Source: Legionellaceae bacterium (lineage in GTDB: Bacteria > Pseudomonadota > Gammaproteobacteria > CBCSKA01). From it: 51,697 bases of DNA. The position numbers and the translations under genes were made by a program. The notes under the pieces are model-generated. The model had not been told where the DNA came from. It made no database searches and saw only the letters and a list, made by a program, of their open reading frames with translations. The DNA lies in the NCBI GenBank assembly GCA_965140885.1, contig CBCSKA010000148.1, forward strand, positions 1-51,697. Direction: 5' to 3'. Positions 6,834 to 50,769 of the stretch are shown one piece after another (the stretch's first letter is position 1; every line of letters starts with the position of its first letter).

Positions 6834-7832
6834 TTATTGTGATGAGGAAGTTTTTATAGTAATGGTGCCACCCTCTTGAGTAAAGGGTGTTTTGATTGTT
6901 TGTTTTTTCATGTTATACGTCATATAAGGTGATTTATAGTTATTATGATCTTGGGTTATATTGACATTACCTTTAAAAACAATGAGATTTTGCTTTGGCA
7001 AATATTGAATTTTTTCTGCATTTCCTTGCATTGACGATATTTTTTCTTGTTCGGCGATATGAATTATCGCAGGTTTTCCTAGAGCCGTCGCTTCTTGTAA
7101 TGCATTTTGAGAGTCCAAATAAACGCTTAATTGATTGGCATATAAGTGGCGTAAATCCTGACTGAAAATAACATTTCCTTCATAAACAGCCATTTTATTT
7201 TTTATCTTAAAATAAGCTTTAGAAGCATTAAGTAGCCATTTTTTATCTGATTCAAACATTGTACTTCTTACATTCTTAGATAATTTTATTATTTCTTTAT
7301 TAAGATCAATGTTTGCACCTTCACTCTTTATCAAAAAATCACCTTGTTGTGTGCTTATTTCACTATTAGTTTGTGCGTATTTTTTTTCAGGTAAAATAAA
7401 AAGATAATTTGTTAATATCTTTGTCGCAGGATGTTGTAAATTTTTAGGTTTAAAGCCTACCACATGATTCCATAATATTAATTCACTAACGCCTTTACGT
7501 GTTTTACCTTTTTGCGCAGAAATTTTCCAAGGTGTATTTTCTTGATCATAAATATAAAAAAGGGGATTTTCCATTTCAGTGATATTTTCATTGGGATAAT
7601 GTTTCATAGAAGAAGAATAAAATTCTGCATCTATATTACCCATTTCATTAAAAGAAACGCCTCGGATTTCTTCCATAAATGCATCAAATTGATATTTATT
7701 AGCATTTTGTAAAGTATGTTGCGCATTGAAAGCTTCAAATATTAACCAAGCACTCAGCATAGCAATAAGAAATAATACAAGGCTACTGATTTTTTGCTTA
7801 TTATTAGATTGAAATATATTTAGATATCGCAT
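6834..7832 (-). CDS. LptC-LptA fusion protein (N-terminal membrane-anchored LptC-like domain plus C-terminal LptA/OstA-like domain in one ORF)
   Basis: 332 aa. The N-terminal TM anchor (SSLVLFLIAMLSAWLIF) and residues up to about aa 195 follow the LptC pattern. Residues from about aa 200 to 332 follow the LptA pattern (VYEGNVIFSQ..L.AN.L.VYLD, ALGKPA, L.FKGNVNITQ). There is no internal signal peptide or stop. Confidence 0.75.
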   Translation of the reverse strand: MRYLNIFQSNNKQKISSLVLFLIAMLSAWLIFEAFNAQHTLQNANKYQFDAFMEEIRGVSFNEMGNIDAEFYSSSMKHYPNENITEMENPLFYIYDQENTPWKISAQKGKTRKGVSELILWNHVVGFKPKNLQHPATKILTNYLFILPEKKYAQTNSEISTQQGDFLIKSEGANIDLNKEIIKLSKNVRSTMFESDKKWLLNASKAYFKIKNKMAVYEGNVIFSQDLRHLYANQLSVYLDSQNALQEATALGKPAIIHIAEQEKISSMQGNAEKIQYLPKQNLIVFKGNVNITQDHNNYKSPYMTYNMKKQTIKTPFTQEGGTITIKTSSSQ

Positions 7833-8331: not shown

Positions 8332-8386
8332 AAAGGGAACTCCTTAATACTCATGAAATGTTTAATGCAAATAGAAAAGTAATAGT

Positions 8387-8736
8387 GAGAGTTAGCCTAT
8401 AAGCCGAGTTCTGTCGAAGGCAATCATTCATCTGCGATGGCTATCACTAGACATCTGTAGCAACCTACCCAAACCCAACGCGGGCAACGTCAATGGGTTT
8501 CTATTTGGTCTTGCTCCAAGCGGGGTTTTCCATGCCATTCAATGTTACCACGAATGCGGTGCGCTCTTACCGCACCATTTCACCCTTACCGCTTATTTAA
8601 AAGCGGCGGTATACTTTCTGTTGCACTTTCCGTAGGTTCACACCTCCCAGGAATTACCTGGCGCTTTGCCCTATGGAGCCCGGACTTTCCTCCCTATTCT
8701 TTATAAAAGAATACAGCGATTACCCAGCTAACTCTC
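8387..8736 (-). ncRNA. rnpB: RNase P RNA, bacterial type A
   Basis: Minus strand contains GGAGGAAAGTCCGGGCTCCATAGGGCA, GTGCAACAGAAAG, GGTAAGGGTGAAA.GGTGCGGTAAGAGCGCACC and ACAGAACTCGGCTTATAGGCTAACTCTC. The P1 pairing GAGAGTTAGC/GCTAACTCTC defines the ends. Confidence 0.93.
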
Positions 8737-9304: not shown

Positions 9305-10546
9305 TTAGTTAGGTTTGTTCTGTTTAGTATCGGAAGAATTATCCATTGGCTGTTTATGCTTAAACACCTTATTTACAGCTTCTATCATATTTTGATTATT
9401 GTGAGGCGTATCTTCGGAAGTCTTATGCTCTATTTTTTCCTTAGCTTCAGACACCGTTTCATGAAACTTTTTAGCACGGTCACTTCTTTTTAAATCTACA
9501 ACCCTTGTTTGCGTGGATTCTTGTTTTTGCATATCTTCAAGTCTTTGCTTAACTGGATTTTCATTTACTTGTTCCTTTTCTAGATTATTATGTTCACTTT
9601 CAATTTTAGATGGAGGCTTCGTTTCAGTATTAGAATTGTTTACAATTTTAGATAGAGACTTCGTTTCAGTATTAGAATTGTTTACAATTTTTTTCAATTC
9701 GGTAAATAAATTTGTCAGCTTATCTGTTGTTTTTTTAATTAAATCAGAAATAAACTTGTCTCCTATGTTTGCAAATGAAGGGAAACCATTTTCAATATTT
9801 TCATTTATTGAAACATTACCCTTAGTGTCATTAGATGTTTTTTGAGCTTTTTCAGCAGGGTTTTCTTCTATAGCTATTATTTCATTCATCAAATTATCAA
9901 CTTCAGTGATTACCTCTTTTTGAAAGTTATCTAGATCTTCGTTTAATCCTGTAACTGAAGATATATCTTTCTTCTTTTCAGCATTATTTTCCTGTATCTC
10001 TTCTTTCACTTTTTTAAATATATTCTCACTTGAAAAAGATTTTTTTGCTTCTAATAATGTCTCTTTCGCAGTATTTAAAATTTGAATTATATTTTTTATT
10101 GAAAAATCAATGATCTTTGATGTATTTTCATTGATTTTTTGATTTTCACTATGTTCCGCTATCTTCGCTTTTAAGTTTTCGCCTTTCCTGTTAATTTTTG
10201 CAATAAAAGATTCAAATTTGTCATCTATTTCTTGAATTTTACTTTTTTCTACACCGTAAACGATCTCCTTTAACGCTTCACTTATTTTTGTTAACAATTC
10301 TTCTTTGGATTCATTAGTGATATCGGGAGCATTCTGTGCTGCTTTTCTTTTAAATAAAGTTACTTTGTCCTCAGCCATTTCTACAGACTGCTTAAAATAA
10401 GCTATCAACCCTTTATCCTCTCCATTCATCTCCTTTGAATCATACTTTGAAAGCATCGCTTTAACCAATTCGTCTACTGTCTTCTTAATAGATTCTTCTA
10501 ATTCTTCCGCTAATTTTATTTTTGCTTCTATTGATAAACCGGCCAT
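9305..10546 (-). CDS. hypothetical Glu/Lys/Asn-rich, predicted coiled-coil protein with an internal 14-aa tandem repeat
   Basis: 413-aa ORF with no recognisable enzymatic motif, no signal peptide and no TM segment. Repeat KIVNNSNTETK(S/P)(L/P)S x2. Composition resembles secreted effectors of intracellular bacteria. Confidence 0.6.
   Translation of the reverse strand: MAGLSIEAKIKLAEELEESIKKTVDELVKAMLSKYDSKEMNGEDKGLIAYFKQSVEMAEDKVTLFKRKAAQNAPDITNESKEELLTKISEALKEIVYGVEKSKIQEIDDKFESFIAKINRKGENLKAKIAEHSENQKINENTSKIIDFSIKNIIQILNTAKETLLEAKKSFSSENIFKKVKEEIQENNAEKKKDISSVTGLNEDLDNFQKEVITEVDNLMNEIIAIEENPAEKAQKTSNDTKGNVSINENIENGFPSFANIGDKFISDLIKKTTDKLTNLFTELKKIVNNSNTETKSLSKIVNNSNTETKPPSKIESEHNNLEKEQVNENPVKQRLEDMQKQESTQTRVVDLKRSDRAKKFHETVSEAKEKIEHKTSEDTPHNNQNMIEAVNKVFKHKQPMDNSSDTKQNKPN
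9601..9684. repeat. 2 x 42-bp tandem repeat inside the 9305-10546 ORF
   Basis: Units 9601-9642 and 9643-9684 differ at 2 positions, and a partial third unit starts at 9685. The period is in frame (14 aa). Confidence 0.9.
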
Positions 10547-15243: not shown

Positions 15244-15507
15244 CGATAGTGTCGCCATTTTTGAGGCCCCTTTTGGGACATCCAAGTCCCCAAAAGGGAC
15301 AAAAATTGTCGACAAGTATGCCTGCGGCAGCCCTGGCCGTCCTGCGTACGCTCGTTATGACACGACTAGGTGTCATAACTTCACTTCCACAAATGACTTG
15401 TCGACCGTGTTGTGGACCTTATATTTTGCCTTCGGCAAAACATCCGGTACTACGGTCTACCAGGGACTATCGGCCTCGCTCCTTCGTCGCTTCCTTGGCC
15501 GACAGCG
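15244..15507 (+). repeat. GC-rich structured dispersed repeat, copy 1 (264 nt)
   Basis: 4 substitutions relative to copy 2 over 264 nt, with unrelated flanks. Intergenic between the groESL promoter and the dapD 3' end. Confidence 0.95.
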
Positions 15508-15588
15508 TTAGTATTTAAAATAAACCCCGTAAAATTTATTAAACCCTATAAAATACTGAAGATTTGCCATTTTTATTATTTTCTATTT

Positions 15589-16548: not shown

Positions 16549-17676
16549 ATGCCAGCTCAAAAAAATTTGCCTCTATCTAAACCTACCTCTAACGCTACTA
16601 GTGACTTAACAAAGCAAGAAAATAAAATTGTTGAAAATAATATCGAAACTATGCACGAGCTATATCAACATTTAAATAATAAATTTAACATTGTATTAGC
16701 AAATAACACTGAATTTAAATTAATTAAAATCAATAATTTTATACAAAAAGATAGTCAAAAAAAATATACAGAATTTGGATATATGGGAAATGAAAACCCT
16801 ATTTATATTACGTCTCATAGTTTTAATCACACTCAAATTTCACTCGATAAAAATGAAATGACTTATGTTGATGGCTTACAAGCAATTAAAACTTATAGTA
16901 AAAACAATGAATTATTTGATAACACTAATGAAGCCTATATTGTAATACCTTTATTTAATAAAAATTCTTTTGGTTTAGGGATTGCTAAAGTAAAAAAATA
17001 TACGGATGAAATGGATTTTCAACTCATGACTTTATTTACTAATGCTATTTCTCCCTTCTCGTCATTTTATTATAAAAATGAAATAGCAAATGCCTGTAAA
17101 AAACAAGAAATGCAGTATCAAGGAACTTTTTATGCAAAAAATTCTTTAGCAATGTCTAATTCACTTAATACGGGTGCGGATATTCTAAAAAAAATAACCG
17201 ATGTTATTGATGGAAAATTAAATTTAGCACTGGCATTTGACCAATTTAAATCCCAAAAAGAAAAAAAACAAAATGAAGAAAAATTAATAAATAAGACATA
17301 TGATATTTTTTCCTTTCCTTTAGGGGTTATAGCTTTATTAGGTGGCGGCGCATTTCTTGGTTTAGCATTGACAATTATACCGACTGTATTACCCCTTGCC
17401 ATTCTCTTTTTTAGTGTAGGAATAGGCACATTATTATTAGCCTATCCTCTTATTTATTCTATGGGTAAAAGCTTGTTTCCTGGCAGTGGCATTGATGTTA
17501 CACAATTATATAAACGCTTAACTGCTACCGCTGATTCTGAACAAAAACAACCACCCCAAATTATATCTACTAATAACAAGATACTACACTCAACTATCGT
17601 TCAAAACCCAACAGTTAATAATACTGAAAACCATACTGAAAAAAAGAGTGAAGAAAAGAAACTTAGCTTAAATTAA
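16549..17676 (+). CDS. hypothetical protein with a C-terminal bilobed hydrophobic hairpin (Inc-like membrane protein)
   Basis: 375-aa ORF with an Asn/Lys-rich N-terminal domain. It has a roughly 55-aa uninterrupted hydrophobic stretch (FPLGVIALLGGGAFLGLALTIIPTVLPLAILFFSVGIGTLLLAYPLIY) followed by a polar tail. I recognised no homologue. Confidence 0.6.
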   Translation: MPAQKNLPLSKPTSNATSDLTKQENKIVENNIETMHELYQHLNNKFNIVLANNTEFKLIKINNFIQKDSQKKYTEFGYMGNENPIYITSHSFNHTQISLDKNEMTYVDGLQAIKTYSKNNELFDNTNEAYIVIPLFNKNSFGLGIAKVKKYTDEMDFQLMTLFTNAISPFSSFYYKNEIANACKKQEMQYQGTFYAKNSLAMSNSLNTGADILKKITDVIDGKLNLALAFDQFKSQKEKKQNEEKLINKTYDIFSFPLGVIALLGGGAFLGLALTIIPTVLPLAILFFSVGIGTLLLAYPLIYSMGKSLFPGSGIDVTQLYKRLTATADSEQKQPPQIISTNNKILHSTIVQNPTVNNTENHTEKKSEEKKLSLN

Positions 17677-23901: not shown

Positions 23902-24435
23902 ATGACAAACGATGCTACCAAACCTGAAAATACTAAAAATATTCCAAACAGCACTATAGCCCCTAAAGATAAAAGAAACGACGAATTACAAAAAGAATTA
24001 GTTGAAGGTCCAGTAACAATTGATTTATCTAGAGAAAATACTAATAGAACTGATAAAAACACGCCTGATGATGAAAACACTAATAGTGATGAAAATTTAA
24101 TAAAGTCTTTGTATGAACTTCTAGCGAAAAAGGGAAGTATTTCTGTCGTTCCACCTAAAGCAGGAGCGAAAGAGCTGCAATTAATTACTTCTGATTTTAA
24201 ATTTAGCCCTATTCAAATTACTTGCCATAACGGGGTAATGAATGCAAGTTGTTACACAAGAGATATACTAGAATCCATGGTACAAATTGCTAAGGATAAA
24301 GGTTGGTCAGCTATTGTTATAGATGAACCCACTAAAAGTAAGGCTAAAGCACTTATACAAGAAATATGTAAGGAAAAAGGTATAGAAGTTAGCAATACCC
24401 CTGCAGAAAATGTTAATGTTAAATTAGTCAAATAA
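23902..24435 (+). CDS. hypothetical protein (disordered polar N-terminal half, compact C-terminal domain)
   Basis: 177-aa ORF with GGGA 7 nt upstream of the ATG. The C-terminal roughly 100 aa has a mixed alpha/beta-like pattern (GSISVVPP...ITCHNGVMNASCY...AKDKGWSAIVIDEP). No family recognised. Confidence 0.55.
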   Translation: MTNDATKPENTKNIPNSTIAPKDKRNDELQKELVEGPVTIDLSRENTNRTDKNTPDDENTNSDENLIKSLYELLAKKGSISVVPPKAGAKELQLITSDFKFSPIQITCHNGVMNASCYTRDILESMVQIAKDKGWSAIVIDEPTKSKAKALIQEICKEKGIEVSNTPAENVNVKLVK

Positions 24436-24510: not shown

Positions 24511-24774
24511 CGATAGTGTCGCCATTTTTGAGACCCCTTTTGGGACATCCAAGTCCCCAAAAGGGACAAAAATTGTCGACAAGTATGCCTGCGGCAGCCC
24601 TGGCCGTCCTGCGTACGCTCGTTATGACACGACTAGGTGTCATAACTTCACTTCCACAAATGACTTGTCGACCGTTTTGTGGGCCTTATATTTTGCCTTC
24701 GGCAAAACATCCGGCACTACGGTCTACCAGGGACTATCGGCCTCGCTCCTTCGTCGCTTCCTTGGCCGACAGCG
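24511..24774 (+). repeat. GC-rich structured dispersed repeat, copy 2 (264 nt, used as reference)
   Basis: Near-identical to copies 1 and 3. Lies 75 nt downstream of the stop of ORF 23902-24435, in the same orientation. Confidence 0.95.
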
Positions 24775-25110
24775 CAAGTTACCATTCTCAAATTAAGTTC
24801 GATAAAATAAATCGCTTTTTTCTCGAATGATCGATTGATAAATTAAACCTACTCACTGCTTATAATTTAACTAAAGGATTATAGGGACACTAAAAATTCC
24901 TTATCTATAATTTTTTATATAAACCTTATGCTGAGGAATTTTATAAAAAAACCTACAGTCAAAAAAAAAAATGCAAAGCCTTGTAAAAATATATCTATGT
25001 TTAGATAAACCATAAAGCTGTAATTTTTCTGATACAGCATAACCCTCATTAAAAGCATTCTTTTTAAATCAAAAATAGGATGGATGATCCTGAAAAGAAA
25101 TAATTATTCA

Positions 25111-27396
25111 TCACGATTCAACGACATTTTCTGTAAAACCACACTCTTTTTGCGGACAAATTTTTTGTGTACCTTTACGCTTAGTCGTTTTTAATGTAAG
25201 AATTGGCCAATCACATTTAGGACAGGATTCTTTTAATGGCTCATTCCAAATCGCATAATTACATTTTGGATAAGTTGAACAAGAATAAAAAATCTTTCCA
25301 TACCGAGATTTACGCGTAAGTAAAGTACCTTCATGACATTGTGGGCAAACGATATCCGTATCTTTGGGTTTTTCAAGTGGTTCCATGTGCTTACATTTAG
25401 GATATTGGCTACAACCTATAAATTTTCCATAACGCCCTTTTTTAATATGTAGAGGAGAATTGCAATCTGGGCAAAGCCTTCCTTCAAGAATAACGGGTTC
25501 TTCTGGAATTGACTCATTATTTTCATTCATATTCCGAGTAAAATCACATTCAGGGAAGCCTGTGCATCCAATAAAACGCCCTCGTTTTCCTAAACGTATC
25601 GATAAAGGTTTTTCGCATTTTGGGCATAATTCATCGATTGTTTCTTGCGTTACATCTTTACGTTGTACATTTTCTTCAATTAAGTCGACTTGCTGATGAA
25701 AAGGCTGCCAAAATTCTTCCATTACTGGAACCCATGCTTTTTCTCCACGAGCAATAGCATCTAATTCATCTTCTAATTTTGCAGTAAAATCATAATCAAC
25801 ATATTGTGTAAAATGTTGTGTTAAAAATTTATTAACAATCCTACCGACATCAGTTGGTTTAAAACGCTTTAGTTCCAGTATTGTATAATCACGTTGTTGT
25901 AAGGTAGAAATAATGCTTGCATAAGTAGAAGGTCTTCCAATACCATATTCTTCAAGGGCTTTTACTAAACTTGCTTCCGAGTAACGTGGAGGCGCTTCTG
26001 TAAAATGTTGTTCATTACGTAGTGTAATAAGCTTTACTTTATCGCCTTCTGTAAGAGGTGGTAATAATTTTGGGTGATCGTCATTTTCTTTTCGGTCATC
26101 AAAGCTTTCTTGATAGACTTCAATAAAACCTGGCTCAGCAATAATAGAACCGTTAGCACGAAATATATTTGATTCTCCACAAAGTAAATCAACAGAAACT
26201 GTATTGATAGTCGCATGTATCATTTGGGAAGCGACTGTTCTTTTCCAAATTAATTCATACAATTTATACTGTTCTGATGTTAAATATGCTTTTACATCTT
26301 CTGGTAATAAAAATATAGAAGTTGGCCGTATAGCTTCATGTGCTTCTTGAGCATTCTTCGATTTAGTTTGATAAATTTTGGGACTTTCAGGTAATTTATT
26401 TTTTCCAAATTTATCAACAATTAATTGACGTATATCGGTAATAGCATCTTTGGCTAAATTGACTGAATCTGTACGCATATAAGTAATTAAACCGACAGCG
26501 CCTTTTCCAACATCTACCCCTTCATAAAGTTGCTGTGCTGTTCGCATCGTGCGTTGCGTAGTAAAATTCAATTTACGTGCGGCTTCTTGTTGTAATGTGG
26601 ATGTCGTAAAAGGGGCTGATGGATTACGTTTACGTTTTTTTCTTTTTACTTCTTTTACCACTAAATACCCTTTTGCGGCTTCTATTAATGTTTCATTTAT
26701 AGAAGTTGCATGTTCTGCCGTAGAAATAGAAAATTGCTCTAACTTTTGTGAATTAAATTGAATTAATTTTGCATTAAGCGTTTGCTCTTGCGATAATAAA
26801 TCAGCTTCAATAGTCCAATATTCTTTTGAAATAAATTTTTCTATTTCTTCTTCACGCTCGACAATCATTCGTAAAGCAGGACTTTGCACACGCCCCGCGG
26901 ATAAGCCACGTCTAATTTTTTTCCATAATAAAGGAGATAAATTAAAACCGACTAAATAATCTAATGCGCGTCTTGCTTGCTGAGCATCAATTAAATCAGT
27001 CGCTAAACTTCGAGGTTTTAATATCGCTTCATTAACTGCATTTTTAGTGATTTCATAAAAAACAATACGAAAAACTTCTTTATTTTTTAATGCTTTTTCT
27101 TCTTTTAAAATTTCATAAATATGCCAAGAAATAGCTTCCCCTTCACGATCAGGATCCGGCGCTAAATAAAGCTTTTCTGCTTTTTTTAAAGCACTGACAA
27201 TCGCATTAACATGTTTTTCATTTTTTTCAATACGCTTATATTTCATTGCAAAGTTTTTTTGTGGATCAACTGCCCCTTGTTTGGGTATTAAATCACGGAC
27301 ATGTCCATATGAAGCTAAAACTTCAAAATCTGAACCTAAATATTTCTTAATTGTTTTTGCTTTTGCAGGAGATTCAACAATAACCAAATTTTTCAT
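25111..27396 (-). CDS. topA: DNA topoisomerase I
   Basis: 761 aa with TOPRIM MKNLVIVESPAKAKTIKKYLG, active-site region GLITYMRTDS and multiple C-terminal CxxC...CxxC zinc ribbons. Confidence 0.96.
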   Translation of the reverse strand: MKNLVIVESPAKAKTIKKYLGSDFEVLASYGHVRDLIPKQGAVDPQKNFAMKYKRIEKNEKHVNAIVSALKKAEKLYLAPDPDREGEAISWHIYEILKEEKALKNKEVFRIVFYEITKNAVNEAILKPRSLATDLIDAQQARRALDYLVGFNLSPLLWKKIRRGLSAGRVQSPALRMIVEREEEIEKFISKEYWTIEADLLSQEQTLNAKLIQFNSQKLEQFSISTAEHATSINETLIEAAKGYLVVKEVKRKKRKRNPSAPFTTSTLQQEAARKLNFTTQRTMRTAQQLYEGVDVGKGAVGLITYMRTDSVNLAKDAITDIRQLIVDKFGKNKLPESPKIYQTKSKNAQEAHEAIRPTSIFLLPEDVKAYLTSEQYKLYELIWKRTVASQMIHATINTVSVDLLCGESNIFRANGSIIAEPGFIEVYQESFDDRKENDDHPKLLPPLTEGDKVKLITLRNEQHFTEAPPRYSEASLVKALEEYGIGRPSTYASIISTLQQRDYTILELKRFKPTDVGRIVNKFLTQHFTQYVDYDFTAKLEDELDAIARGEKAWVPVMEEFWQPFHQQVDLIEENVQRKDVTQETIDELCPKCEKPLSIRLGKRGRFIGCTGFPECDFTRNMNENNESIPEEPVILEGRLCPDCNSPLHIKKGRYGKFIGCSQYPKCKHMEPLEKPKDTDIVCPQCHEGTLLTRKSRYGKIFYSCSTYPKCNYAIWNEPLKESCPKCDWPILTLKTTKRKGTQKICPQKECGFTENVVES

Positions 27397-49175: not shown

Positions 49176-49630
49176 CAGATCCTTTAACACTTGCCGTTGG
49201 TCTAGGTTTAGCAATTAGTCTAATCTTTACTGAATTTTTTGGCTTAAAAGCCGGTGGAATGATAGTGCCAGGTTATATGGCAATAAACTTAATTCATCCA
49301 GTTCCTATTATTTTGACACTTATTACAGCAGCTGCGGCATTTTTTTTAGTAAGGGGATTATCTTCGTTTTTAATCATATTTGGACATCGTCGACGCGCCT
49401 TGATCGTATTAGTTGCTTTTATTTTAGGCGCAATTGGCCATCATTTATTTACCCATATCATTAGTAATAATACGAGTGATGCTTATAATGTTGTTGGATT
49501 TTTGACGCCAGGATTAATTGCATCATCTTTTGATAAACAAGGGATTATTGAAACCTGTGCAACAATTTTTACTATTTCCATTATTGTTAGATTAATTTTA
49601 ATTCTTTGTATTGGTTCGGCACTGACATAA
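49172..49630 (+). CDS. pgsC: PgsC/CapC poly-gamma-glutamate synthesis membrane protein
   Basis: 152 aa with 4-5 TM segments, colinear with B. subtilis PgsC (LIF.E..G...GG.IVPGY, G.RR.A, PGLIA....KQG). Confidence 0.85.
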   Translation: MTDPLTLAVGLGLAISLIFTEFFGLKAGGMIVPGYMAINLIHPVPIILTLITAAAAFFLVRGLSSFLIIFGHRRRALIVLVAFILGAIGHHLFTHIISNNTSDAYNVVGFLTPGLIASSFDKQGIIETCATIFTISIIVRLILILCIGSALT

Positions 49631-50769
49631 TGAAAAAACTCTATTGGCAATCCCATCGCTTTTCACGTTTAACCTTATTATTTGTATGTTTATTATCTTT
49701 TGTTGGTATTATTACGGTTGAAAAATTTAAAACTTATATCCCACAAAATTATTATCATGAAAAACTTGCCGCGACATTATTAACAAAACAATGCATGCTT
49801 GCTATAAAAAAGTATCGTTTAAAAAAACATATTCCTATTGAATACGAAAACGATCCTCAACATTCGGGACTTATTGGCGAAGCCTTTAATTTTTTAACCA
49901 CCGGACACGGTAGTTTAACCGCGAAACAAACATCAATTAATCCGAATTTTTCTGCATTAATTGTTGCTTGGTTAAAAAGTATTGGAATAAAAGCGGGGGA
50001 TACTATTGCTTTAGGGATGAATGGTTCTTATCCTGCATTAAATATTGCTGTATTAGCCGCAGCAAAAACCCTACAGTTAAAGCCTATTTTAATAGTTAAT
50101 ATGTCTTCTACACAATGGGGGGGCAATATTCCTCGCTTGTTATGGTTGGATATGTTATCCATTTTGAATAAGCAAGATTTAATTCCCTATACTCCTATTG
50201 CAGCAACAATAGCAGAAACTAAAAATCAATTGAAAAATAATCCTAGAAAATCCAATTATTATTTACTTAAATTAATCAAAAAATATAAAATCCCTTTTAT
50301 TGATACCATAGATAATAGCGATATTATAACTAAAAGAATGAATATTTATTATGAGCAAGCAAAAAAGAATCATAGCCCTATTAAAATTTATATTAATGTA
50401 GGAAGTAGTGTTACCGTACATCGAAAACTGGGAAAACATAAAAATATAAAACCGGGGTTAAATACAATAATACCTATCGCAGCCGCAACAAGTGATTCTG
50501 TTATGTTGCGATTCATGAAAAATGGGATACCCATTATTAATTTAACCAATATTGAAACATTAGCAGAAAAATATGAATTACCTATTTCACCTTCTACTCA
50601 TCCTATACTAGGAAAAGGTAATATCTTTTTTGAAAAACATTATAATACTTATTTAGCTATCACTTATTTATTCGCTATTTTGGTTTTTTTAATACTATCC
50701 ACTATCTTAAATAAAGCACGTTTTAATCGACATTATAATTCAGGTGTCAAAACTACGCATGAAGAATAA
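49630..50769 (+). CDS. membrane-anchored protein of the poly-gamma-glutamate cluster (not CapA/PgsA-like; possibly the alternative PGA-system protein)
   Basis: 379 aa with N- and C-terminal TM helices flanking a large soluble domain. The start overlaps the pgsC stop (TAATG). The functional assignment rests on operon context only. Confidence 0.55.
   Translation: MKKLYWQSHRFSRLTLLFVCLLSFVGIITVEKFKTYIPQNYYHEKLAATLLTKQCMLAIKKYRLKKHIPIEYENDPQHSGLIGEAFNFLTTGHGSLTAKQTSINPNFSALIVAWLKSIGIKAGDTIALGMNGSYPALNIAVLAAAKTLQLKPILIVNMSSTQWGGNIPRLLWLDMLSILNKQDLIPYTPIAATIAETKNQLKNNPRKSNYYLLKLIKKYKIPFIDTIDNSDIITKRMNIYYEQAKKNHSPIKIYINVGSSVTVHRKLGKHKNIKPGLNTIIPIAAATSDSVMLRFMKNGIPIINLTNIETLAEKYELPISPSTHPILGKGNIFFEKHYNTYLAITYLFAILVFLILSTILNKARFNRHYNSGVKTTHEE

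Follow-up and report, generated by a model that had tools for sequence, protein, structure and literature searches.

The 51,697-nucleotide stretch of Legionellaceae DNA analysed here (contig CBCSKA010000148.1, called the window in the following) carries three copies of a GC-rich element of 264-265 nt, which almost certainly represents a family of mobile DNA. Members of the family are inserted precisely, at sites that have a single near-invariant base, and keep a conserved fold of six helices over their entire length. They are non-autonomous and may be moved as one folded DNA strand by an enzyme acting in trans, a reading inspired by known single-strand transposons to which we give about an even chance. 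An earlier note, made from the window alone, had described the three copies as an undescribed structured RNA or a non-autonomous mobile element, and its description of the copies is confirmed. Compared with copy 2, copy 1 differs by four substitutions and copy 3 by one substitution plus one inserted T, giving mutual identities of 98-99%, and the count of 140 G+C per copy (140/264, 53%) is exact and compares with 32.2% for the whole window. The flanks of the three copies are unrelated, all three are intergenic, and no gene for a transposase, integrase, reverse transcriptase (RT) or HUH protein is present among the ~35 window genes scanned against Pfam. The dense self-complementarity of the element is likewise real, since it folds far beyond shuffled sequences on both strands (z = -6.2 and -5.8 as RNA, -5.3 on both strands as DNA).

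A view on the distribution of the element shows that it is highly repeated in some genomes. By chance, one reading frame runs through the Legionellaceae copies without a stop and is annotated by gene callers as 'hypothetical proteins'; a search with this peptide returned matches solely from one metagenome-assembled genome (MAG), 'Legionellaceae bacterium LEGION0398', and together with the cluster members these amount to at least 19 near-identical loci in the Legionellaceae MAG, which fall into two subfamilies (RPFCGP...HPAL and RPCCGP...HPVL). Because these copies are near-identical, we infer a recent burst in this genome. The open frame is not conserved in relatives, many of which have stops in all frames, and the element is therefore regarded as non-coding. 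Exact 20-mers of the Legionellaceae copy retrieved nothing from species-representative genomes, apart from one chance match in Mycobacterium, or from JGI metagenomes, and no match was present in the phage records searched. Diverged copies of the whole element, running from 5' ...GTCGC... to ...CAGCG 3', were obtained by sensitive blastn against plasmids, the carriers being two plasmids of Legionella antarctica and plasmids of Methylobacter, Methylomonas (two strains), Ca. Methylocalor, and a Methyloprofundus symbiont. One 289-kb Methylomonas plasmid contains ~30 copies or fragments of several subfamilies, including eight near-identical 'A' copies of 282 nt and nine near-identical 'B' copies of 255 nt. 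A second search with a spurious ORF (open reading frame) extended the methanotroph clade to the chromosomes of several Methylomonas species, to methanotrophic gill symbionts of Bathymodiolus (many copies), and to other Methylococcaceae. Moreover, a degenerate pattern from a conserved block identified the element on more than 120 metagenome contigs among the matches listed, in which nhmmer recovered 41 full-length copies; many of these contigs end inside the element, which is a signature of a multicopy repeat, and one IMG/VR contig also bears a copy.

Members of the family measure ~255-310 nt and have so far come from Legionellales and Methylococcales only, orders between which the family spreads horizontally. 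It is apparently previously undescribed, and this part of the earlier proposal holds as far as it could be tested against Rfam, plasmid annotation, and the literature searched: the element is unannotated in the plasmid records, no matching description was found, and a covariance search of Rfam 15 with the Legionellaceae and Methylobacter versions produced no match at gathering score, and what appeared at E <= 10 was noise, a null result that takes in HEARO, the IS605-orfB motifs, group I and II introns, 6S RNA, and tmRNA.

Movement of the element is documented by a pair of empty and filled sites on the Methylomonas plasmid, part of which is duplicated, with an 'A' copy in only one of the two paralogous regions. 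The sequence of the empty site is ...CAGCTAT/GTGGTAAC... (the slash marking the insertion point here and below) and that of the filled site is ...CAGCTAT, followed by the element (CAAGCGAGTCGC...TTTTCAGCG) and by GTGGTAAC..., such that TAT/GTGG is opened by the element exactly to the base. It follows from this pair that insertion is precise, that no target-site duplication (TSD) is generated, as the earlier note had suspected from the window, and that the ends are not inverted repeats, the 5' end (CAAGCGAGTCGC or CGATAGTGTCGC) showing no match to the reverse complement of the 3' end (CGCTG...). The reading frames of interrupted genes likewise become intact when the element is cut out exactly, namely that of a Tn3-family transposase in L. 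antarctica, for which a close uninterrupted homologue was searched for and not found, that of a P4-type integrase at codon 13/14 on an IMG/VR contig, and apparently that of an IS91-family transposase, as judged by eye and not by computation. In the integrase contig, an ATG within the element now starts the called ORF of 447 aa. A further copy splits the rep gene of the Methyloprofundus symbiont plasmid near its 3' end, and this plasmid is apparently still maintained. On the Methylomonas plasmid four ORFs are interrupted, three in antisense and one in sense orientation. In several short ORFs (P0063, P0066, P0097, P0135), the sequence read from the element is joined to fragments of IS3 OrfA/OrfB or of IS1595 zinc-finger transposases, so that the element seems to land often in the genes of other transposons. 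It inserts as one unit extending from 5' (C/A/T)NNN-YG.G... to ...CAGCG 3'.

The target is recognizable by one base. Of 126 distinct right flanks, 122 have G at the fourth position past ...CAGCG (binomial p ~1e-67); positions +1 and +2 are A- or A/T-rich, and A/T predominates at -3 to -1 of the left flank, which gives a target of the form W-W-T/N-N-N-G with the G at +4 as the sole near-invariant base; on the complementary strand, the rule reads 5'-C-N-N-N/cut. The same rule is seen in every copy of the MAG, in which G is the middle base of the second codon after ...SLADS (codons for C, W, S, R, or G, or a stop). These four bases must belong to the target and not to the element, because of the empty site and of the two restored ORFs for the Tn3 transposase and the integrase. 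The first four bases of the element itself are N-N-N-G in most clades (CAAG, AAAG, CCAG, CCGG, TAAG, or [G/C/T]CGG), and CGAT, TGAT, or CGAA in the Legionella clade including the window copies. The AGAT motif that the earlier note had seen 0-3 nt to the left of the copies turned out to be no family-wide feature when the left flanks were compared. With regard to orientation, the top strand of the element lies on the C-rich strand in 22 of the 30 contigs with an absolute GC skew above 0.03 (p = 0.016), a modest bias which fits strand-specific insertion at replication forks; the GC skew of the Methylomonas plasmid was uninformative.

Selection acts over the entire element to preserve six Watson-Crick helices, which comprise 35 pairs and span the element (Table 1), as derived from an alignment of 31 members with less than 95% identity to each other by RNAalifold and an explicit pair count. 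The paired cells make up 96.3% of 1081, compared with 79% in column shuffles and 32-50% with the partners slid, both sides have changed in 22 pairs (179 cells) while one-sided changes are nearly absent, and the covariation score of 0.452 was reached by none of 500 shuffles, which scored 0.143. The long-range helix of the central domain pairs GCCCY with the RGGG of the invariant GGGACTA and contains a pair that is C-G in 18 sequences and U-A in 10; the strongly covarying hairpin corresponds to TTTTGCC/GGCAAAA in copy 2, and compensatory changes between clades are evident by eye in the distal 5' hairpin and the middle hairpin. Conserved motifs are left unpaired, namely CATCC in the apical loop of the distal hairpin, ATGACT, GGGACTA, TCGCT, TTCC, and the terminal CAGCG, of which the last two bases follow the end of the 3' hairpin. 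Of the stems drawn in the earlier note, the long hairpin at 24524-24573 and TTTTGCC/GGCAAAA are thus kept in the family by compensatory changes, whereas the long-range stem GTCGACAAGT/ACTTGTCGAC and the pairings of the 5' end with the 3' part are limited to the copies of this genome and not preserved in relatives, which instead form the base helix of the 5' domain, the closing helix of the central domain, and the 3' hairpin.

The few non-canonical cells among the 1081 include ~12 G-U and ~7 A-C combinations. A selected RNA would normally accept G-U much more readily than A-C, and since wobbles here fare no better than mismatches, the pattern fits a structure that is read as DNA. In a small sample of related sequences, this suggests that the fold acts as single-stranded DNA rather than as RNA. 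Of the two proposals in the earlier note, the mobile element is borne out by the empty site, the interrupted genes, the at least 19 genome copies, and the more than 120 metagenome contigs, many of them broken inside the element. The structured RNA does not stand as it was worded: the fold is real and conserved, but G-U is as rare as A-C, copies lie antisense in ORFs, and neither a promoter nor the open frame through the element is conserved.

A possible mechanism can be drawn up by analogy with HUH transposases. The moving form of such a 'peel/roll-and-paste' element would be one folded strand, probably the one complementary to the '+' strand of the window, and a trans-acting enzyme would cut 3' of C-N-N-N at the right-hand junction of the donor and in the target, as well as at the other end of the element. 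The strands would then be rejoined through 5'-phosphotyrosine chemistry, following the cut-and-rejoin logic of HUH enzymes, while the fold would provide subterminal hairpins and hold both ends together. Known layouts of this kind, with slashes for the cuts, are target tetranucleotide/oriIS ... terIS-tetranucleotide/ in IS91 and target-adjacent motif (TAM)/left end (LE) ... right end (RE)/ in IS200/IS605.

A partner enzyme was searched for by tblastn with Y1 (IS200/IS605), Y2 (IS91), TnpB, and IS110 queries and by all-against-all clustering of 1195 ORFs from ~150 loci. No gene recurs beside the element in these loci apart from generic tyrosine integrases, ABC ATPases, and sensor kinases. A tnpB gene 70 nt downstream of a Methylobacter copy was rejected as partner, as it belongs to an IS605-type insertion sequence (IS) with its own hairpins and an RE ending in ...GGATGTCAAT, and the IS605 at 219.5-221.3 kb of the Methylomonas plasmid likewise bears no relation to the element. 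A frameshifted IS200-like tnpA pseudogene located 14 nt upstream of another copy (L039, 3933-4207, minus strand) was also discarded, its intact relatives (e.g., L138) being standard IS200 with unrelated ends; the element has probably landed in the right end of that IS200. Apart from these, no Y1 gene was detected in the ~150 loci, and the two IS91 tnpA genes seen are both interrupted or truncated by the element. No gene for a topoisomerase IA was found on the carrier plasmids.

Several observations weigh against single-strand transposition by such an enzyme, the weak points being the absent helper, the one-base motif, the very extensive fold, and the left end of the Legionella clade. No HUH (Y1/Y2) gene that shares the ends of the element or recurs with it is present in the ~150 loci, the window, or the copy-rich Methylomonas plasmid, and the ends of the nearby IS605 and IS200 are unrelated to those of the element, without any nhmmer match. 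Known HUH transposons read a target motif of 4-5 nt instead of a single base, and they require subterminal hairpins only, rather than a fold of ~270 nt with long-range helices and the invariant unpaired motifs ATGACT and GGGACTA. Since the first four bases in the Legionella clade are not N-N-N-G, a cut at the left end cannot follow the C(-4) rule there. The upstream gene is co-oriented with the element in 25 cases versus 11, which is somewhat at odds with an orientation bias set by replication forks, and neither circle junctions nor head-to-tail or tandem copies occur in the DNA examined. Finally, the distinction between DNA and RNA draws on few non-canonical cells in related sequences.

As a rival explanation, the element could encode a structured RNA or be a (retro-)element mediated by RNA, whose fold would act as regulatory small RNA, ribozyme, or RT template and which would have spread via an RNA intermediate. 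A conserved fold that takes in the whole length, includes long-range helices, and leaves invariant motifs unpaired would be expected of an RNA more than of transposon ends, and the high G+C content within an AT-rich genome, the preferred co-orientation with the upstream gene, one copy directly after a tRNA, and several 5'-truncated copies with intact 3' ends point in the same direction. We nevertheless consider this explanation unlikely, as G-U pairs account for ~1% of the cells and are no commoner than A-C, three of the four interrupted ORFs on the Methylomonas plasmid contain the element in antisense orientation, no Rfam family matches at E <= 10, and no promoter is conserved across clades. 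No RT gene is linked to the element, the group II introns that were seen sitting inside it and in antisense, and the excess of 5'-truncated copies can be ascribed to ascertainment, the search pattern being located near the 3' end.

The missing transposase and the one-base rule would both be accounted for if the element were a transposase-less parasite of the host type IA topoisomerase (Topo I/III), which would cut and rejoin the folded strand, with both ends presented by the fold, at C-N-N-N/. Bacterial topoisomerase I favours cleavage sites that have a C four bases to their 5' side and forms a 5'-phosphotyrosine on single strands (PMC3467081). Position -4 relative to the cut on the complementary strand also holds the sole near-invariant target base of the element, again a C, which matches this selectivity; in most clades the element itself also ends in C-N-N-N on this strand, and no transposase was found at any locus. 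This explanation appears improbable because the left end of the Legionella clade lacks the C at -4, Topo I is universal while members of the family are known from Legionellales and Methylococcales only, and no plasmid-borne topoisomerase IA was found; to our knowledge, there is no precedent for topoisomerase-driven transposition. The topA gene next to copy 2 is a housekeeping gene and its proximity is probably a coincidence.

The element might also move as a double-stranded circle by a trans-acting tyrosine or serine site-specific recombinase (Tn554/Tn916-like or IS607-like), NNNG representing the crossover or coupling region. Such a route would agree with the lack of TSDs and terminal inverted repeats (TIRs), with N-N-N-G as the first four bases in most clades, like a carried 'coupling' sequence, and with tyrosine integrases as the commonest recurrent neighbours (10 loci). 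It has a similarly small chance of being correct, because identical copies all share their 5' tetranucleotide while their right flanks differ, the 'cores' share one base only, the integrases are generic and inconsistently positioned, and the conservation of a single-strand fold over the whole length would be left unexplained. Least of all can the element be expected to be a guide-RNA module (omega RNA or bridge RNA) of TnpB, IscB, or IS110, as the earlier note had suggested by analogy, or a self-splicing intron: one copy has a tnpB gene 70 nt downstream and four gene interruptions are in sense orientation, but that tnpB is part of an ordinary IS605-type IS and the only one near any of the ~150 loci, the single adjacent IS200 tnpA equally belongs to an IS with unrelated ends, Rfam yields no HEARO, IS605-orfB, or intron match, the insertion sites share no sequence for an internal guide, their flanks being unconserved except for the +4 G, and an obligate intron is ruled out by the antisense insertions in three of the four interrupted ORFs of the Methylomonas plasmid.

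If the element is a single-strand transposon, its logic would come closest to that of IS91, followed by the palindrome-associated transposable elements (PATEs) of IS200/IS605 and the REPIN/RAYT system. The IS91 family generates no TSD, requires an essential target tetranucleotide by oriIS and a cleavage tetranucleotide at terIS, and has subterminal palindromes and a functional bottom-strand circle of single-stranded DNA (PMC13181058). Like the members of this HUH Y2 rolling-circle family (IS91, IS801, IS1294) and their miniatures, the element lacks TSDs and TIRs, has a target tetranucleotide abutting one specific end and another tetranucleotide at the other end, bears subterminal palindromes at both ends, and may pass through a strand-specific single-stranded intermediate. 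In contrast to the CTTG/GTTC of IS91, its target C-N-N-N contains one fixed base, with CTTG, CTTT, CCCG, etc. at the other end in most clades and ATCG in the Legionella clade; furthermore, no Y2 transposase with its ends is known from the loci analysed, its entire 260-310 nt are folded, and one-ended read-through products were not seen.

Like the PATEs, the element lacks TSDs and TIRs, has subterminal hairpins, inserts 3' of a short motif in what would be the active strand, would be mobilised in trans, and is biased in its orientation with respect to GC skew. IS200/IS605 elements recognize a specific TAM of 4-5 nt by means of a guide sequence located next to the LE hairpin, whereas the element has one fixed base (C at -4 on the complementary strand, in the 122 of 126 flanks given above) and a weak A/T preference, shares its ends with no tnpA- or tnpB-bearing IS, possesses two dissimilar end hairpins, and is much larger and more elaborate than known PATE ends. 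The REP and REPIN sequences mobilised by RAYT (TnpA-REP) resemble it as many near-identical, non-coding, structured, and mostly intergenic copies, whose enzyme, if any, is encoded once elsewhere, and by a conserved tetranucleotide beside the foot of a hairpin. Size and architecture differ: REPs of 20-40 nt and REPINs of ~100 nt are simple hairpins with GTAG/CGTC tags that flank a single-copy RAYT gene, whereas the element has six helices in 255-310 nt, readily enters genes and plasmids, and moves horizontally between orders. Identity as a classical miniature inverted-repeat transposable element (MITE; Correia/NEMIS, Coxiella QMITEs), to which it is similar in being small, non-coding, multicopy, structured, and helper-dependent, is ruled out, because MITEs have TIRs and TSDs from DDE transposases and the element, tested for both, has neither. 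Integron attC sites finally resemble it in keeping structure rather than sequence along the site, and would also do so in acting as a folded single strand with strand specificity; however, they measure 57-141 nt, recombine at G/TT via IntI, and form cassette arrays, and the element shows no such motif, integrase, or array.

The element is itself a target of other mobile DNA. Hits split by 0.7-2 kb were considered as autonomous forms and rejected, as they proved to be insertions of group II introns or of IS110, plus one AT-rich insert (Table 1). The group II introns of two 'A' copies share one insertion position, GCCTTGCAG/GTTTTC, match the D1-D4 and D5-D6 models of Rfam, and encode an RT ORF of 436 aa; one intron pair appears rearranged by inversion. 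As an IS110 gene lies between the two halves of one copy, the element must have been the target of an IS110-type insertion. The ~600 bp of AT-rich DNA in a B-type copy contain an antisense ORF of 172 aa without Pfam match and may be cargo or an unrelated insertion.

Table 1. Positions of the element copies, their target tetranucleotides, the parts of the conserved fold (numbered on copy 2), and informative insertions. Positions refer to the window unless another sequence is named.
Feature	Sequence	Positions	Strand	Remarks
Element copy 1, 264 nt	window	15244-15507	+	flanked by groES on its upstream side and by dapD; antisense to both genes
Element copy 2, 264 nt	window	24511-24774	+	between 177-aa ORF and 3' end of topA, which are convergent
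Element copy 3, 265 nt	window	45976-46240	-	13 nt 3' of same-strand tRNA-Arg(CCT); convergent with asd
tRNA-Arg(CCT)	window	46254-46330	-	directly 5' of copy 3; context, outside the element
Target tetranucleotide TTAG, copy 1	window	15508-15511		
Target tetranucleotide CAAG, copy 2	window	24775-24778	+	
Target tetranucleotide AGGG, copy 3	window	45975-45972	-	
5' hairpin domain	window	24518-24580	+	base helix 24518-24522/24576-24580 (GTCGC/GCGAC-type) around distal hairpin 24524-24573
Mini-hairpin GCC-NNN-GGC	window	24587-24595	+	
Central domain	window	24598-24732	+	long-range closing helix 24598-24601/24729-24732
Central domain, contents	window			variable hairpin 24621-24646; unpaired ATGACT; helix 24670-24673/24720-24724; hairpin 24683-24696/24702-24715
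3' hairpin	window	24734-24742/24764-24772 (24734-24772)	+	loop motifs TCGCT and TTCC; stops two bases before the terminus
L. antarctica-type copy in P4-type integrase	IMG/VR contig L137	1708-1968	-	between codons 13 and 14
Copy splitting rep gene near 3' end	Methyloprofundus symbiont plasmid (L014)	5782-6059		sense orientation
Group II introns in two 'A' copies	Methylomonas AM2-LC plasmid (L009)	1645-3658 and 12620-12915/17540-17609 (~148.6-150.7 kb, 159.6-164.6 kb)		antisense to element
IS110-family transposase gene	L086	111-1151		between two element halves
B-type copy, middle replaced by ~600 bp AT-rich DNA	Methylomonas AM2-LC plasmid	215246-216113 (L010 ~19.2-20.1 kb)		

In the window, the three copies are found amid ordinary housekeeping genes, the neighbours being groES-groEL and dapD (assigned by eye from the translation alone) for copy 1, topA and a 177-aa ORF without Pfam match for copy 2, and tRNA-Arg(CCT), asd, and a pterin dehydratase gene for copy 3. 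Copy 1 carries the subfamily marks G at 15471 and T at 15486. Just past their 3' ends, the flanks of copies 2 (24779-24786) and 3 (45962-45971, minus strand) have GTTAC(N)CATT in common, which is absent at copy 1 and may reflect chance or an earlier common target context. The topA gene (25111-27396, minus strand, convergent with copy 2) codes for Toprim and Topoisom_bac domains and three Zn ribbons; its adjacency, curious in view of the C(-4) rule, is probably coincidental. A full-length match to bacterial class A RNase P RNA (333 bits; 8384-8735, minus strand) forms the other GC-rich island in the window. Further features are a tandem 42-nt direct repeat (93% identical, 9598-9681) within a 413-aa ORF without Pfam match (9305-10546, minus strand) and a 332-aa ORF (6834-7832, minus strand) which joins an LptC domain with an LptA/LptD_N domain and represents either a fusion or two genes joined by the mechanical ORF call. 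Six ORFs (23902-24435, 16549-17676, 35229-35828, 35900-37165, 47916-49175, and 49606-50769) match no Pfam family at E <= 1e-4 and may encode lineage-specific, effector-like Legionellaceae proteins.

If the element is what it appears to be, an unrecognised family of mobile DNA is abundant in the genomes and plasmids of Legionellales and methanotrophs, including the symbionts of mussels, where it disrupts the transposases of other transposons, plasmid rep genes, and prophage integrases and breaks metagenome assemblies. As a practical consequence, the family should be masked or annotated, since it is now called as dozens of spurious 'hypothetical proteins'. The combination of a conserved fold over the whole length, a single-base target rule, and no linked enzyme is unusual, and the element would offer a tractable system for a new enzyme of single-strand transposition or for transposition driven by a host topoisomerase.

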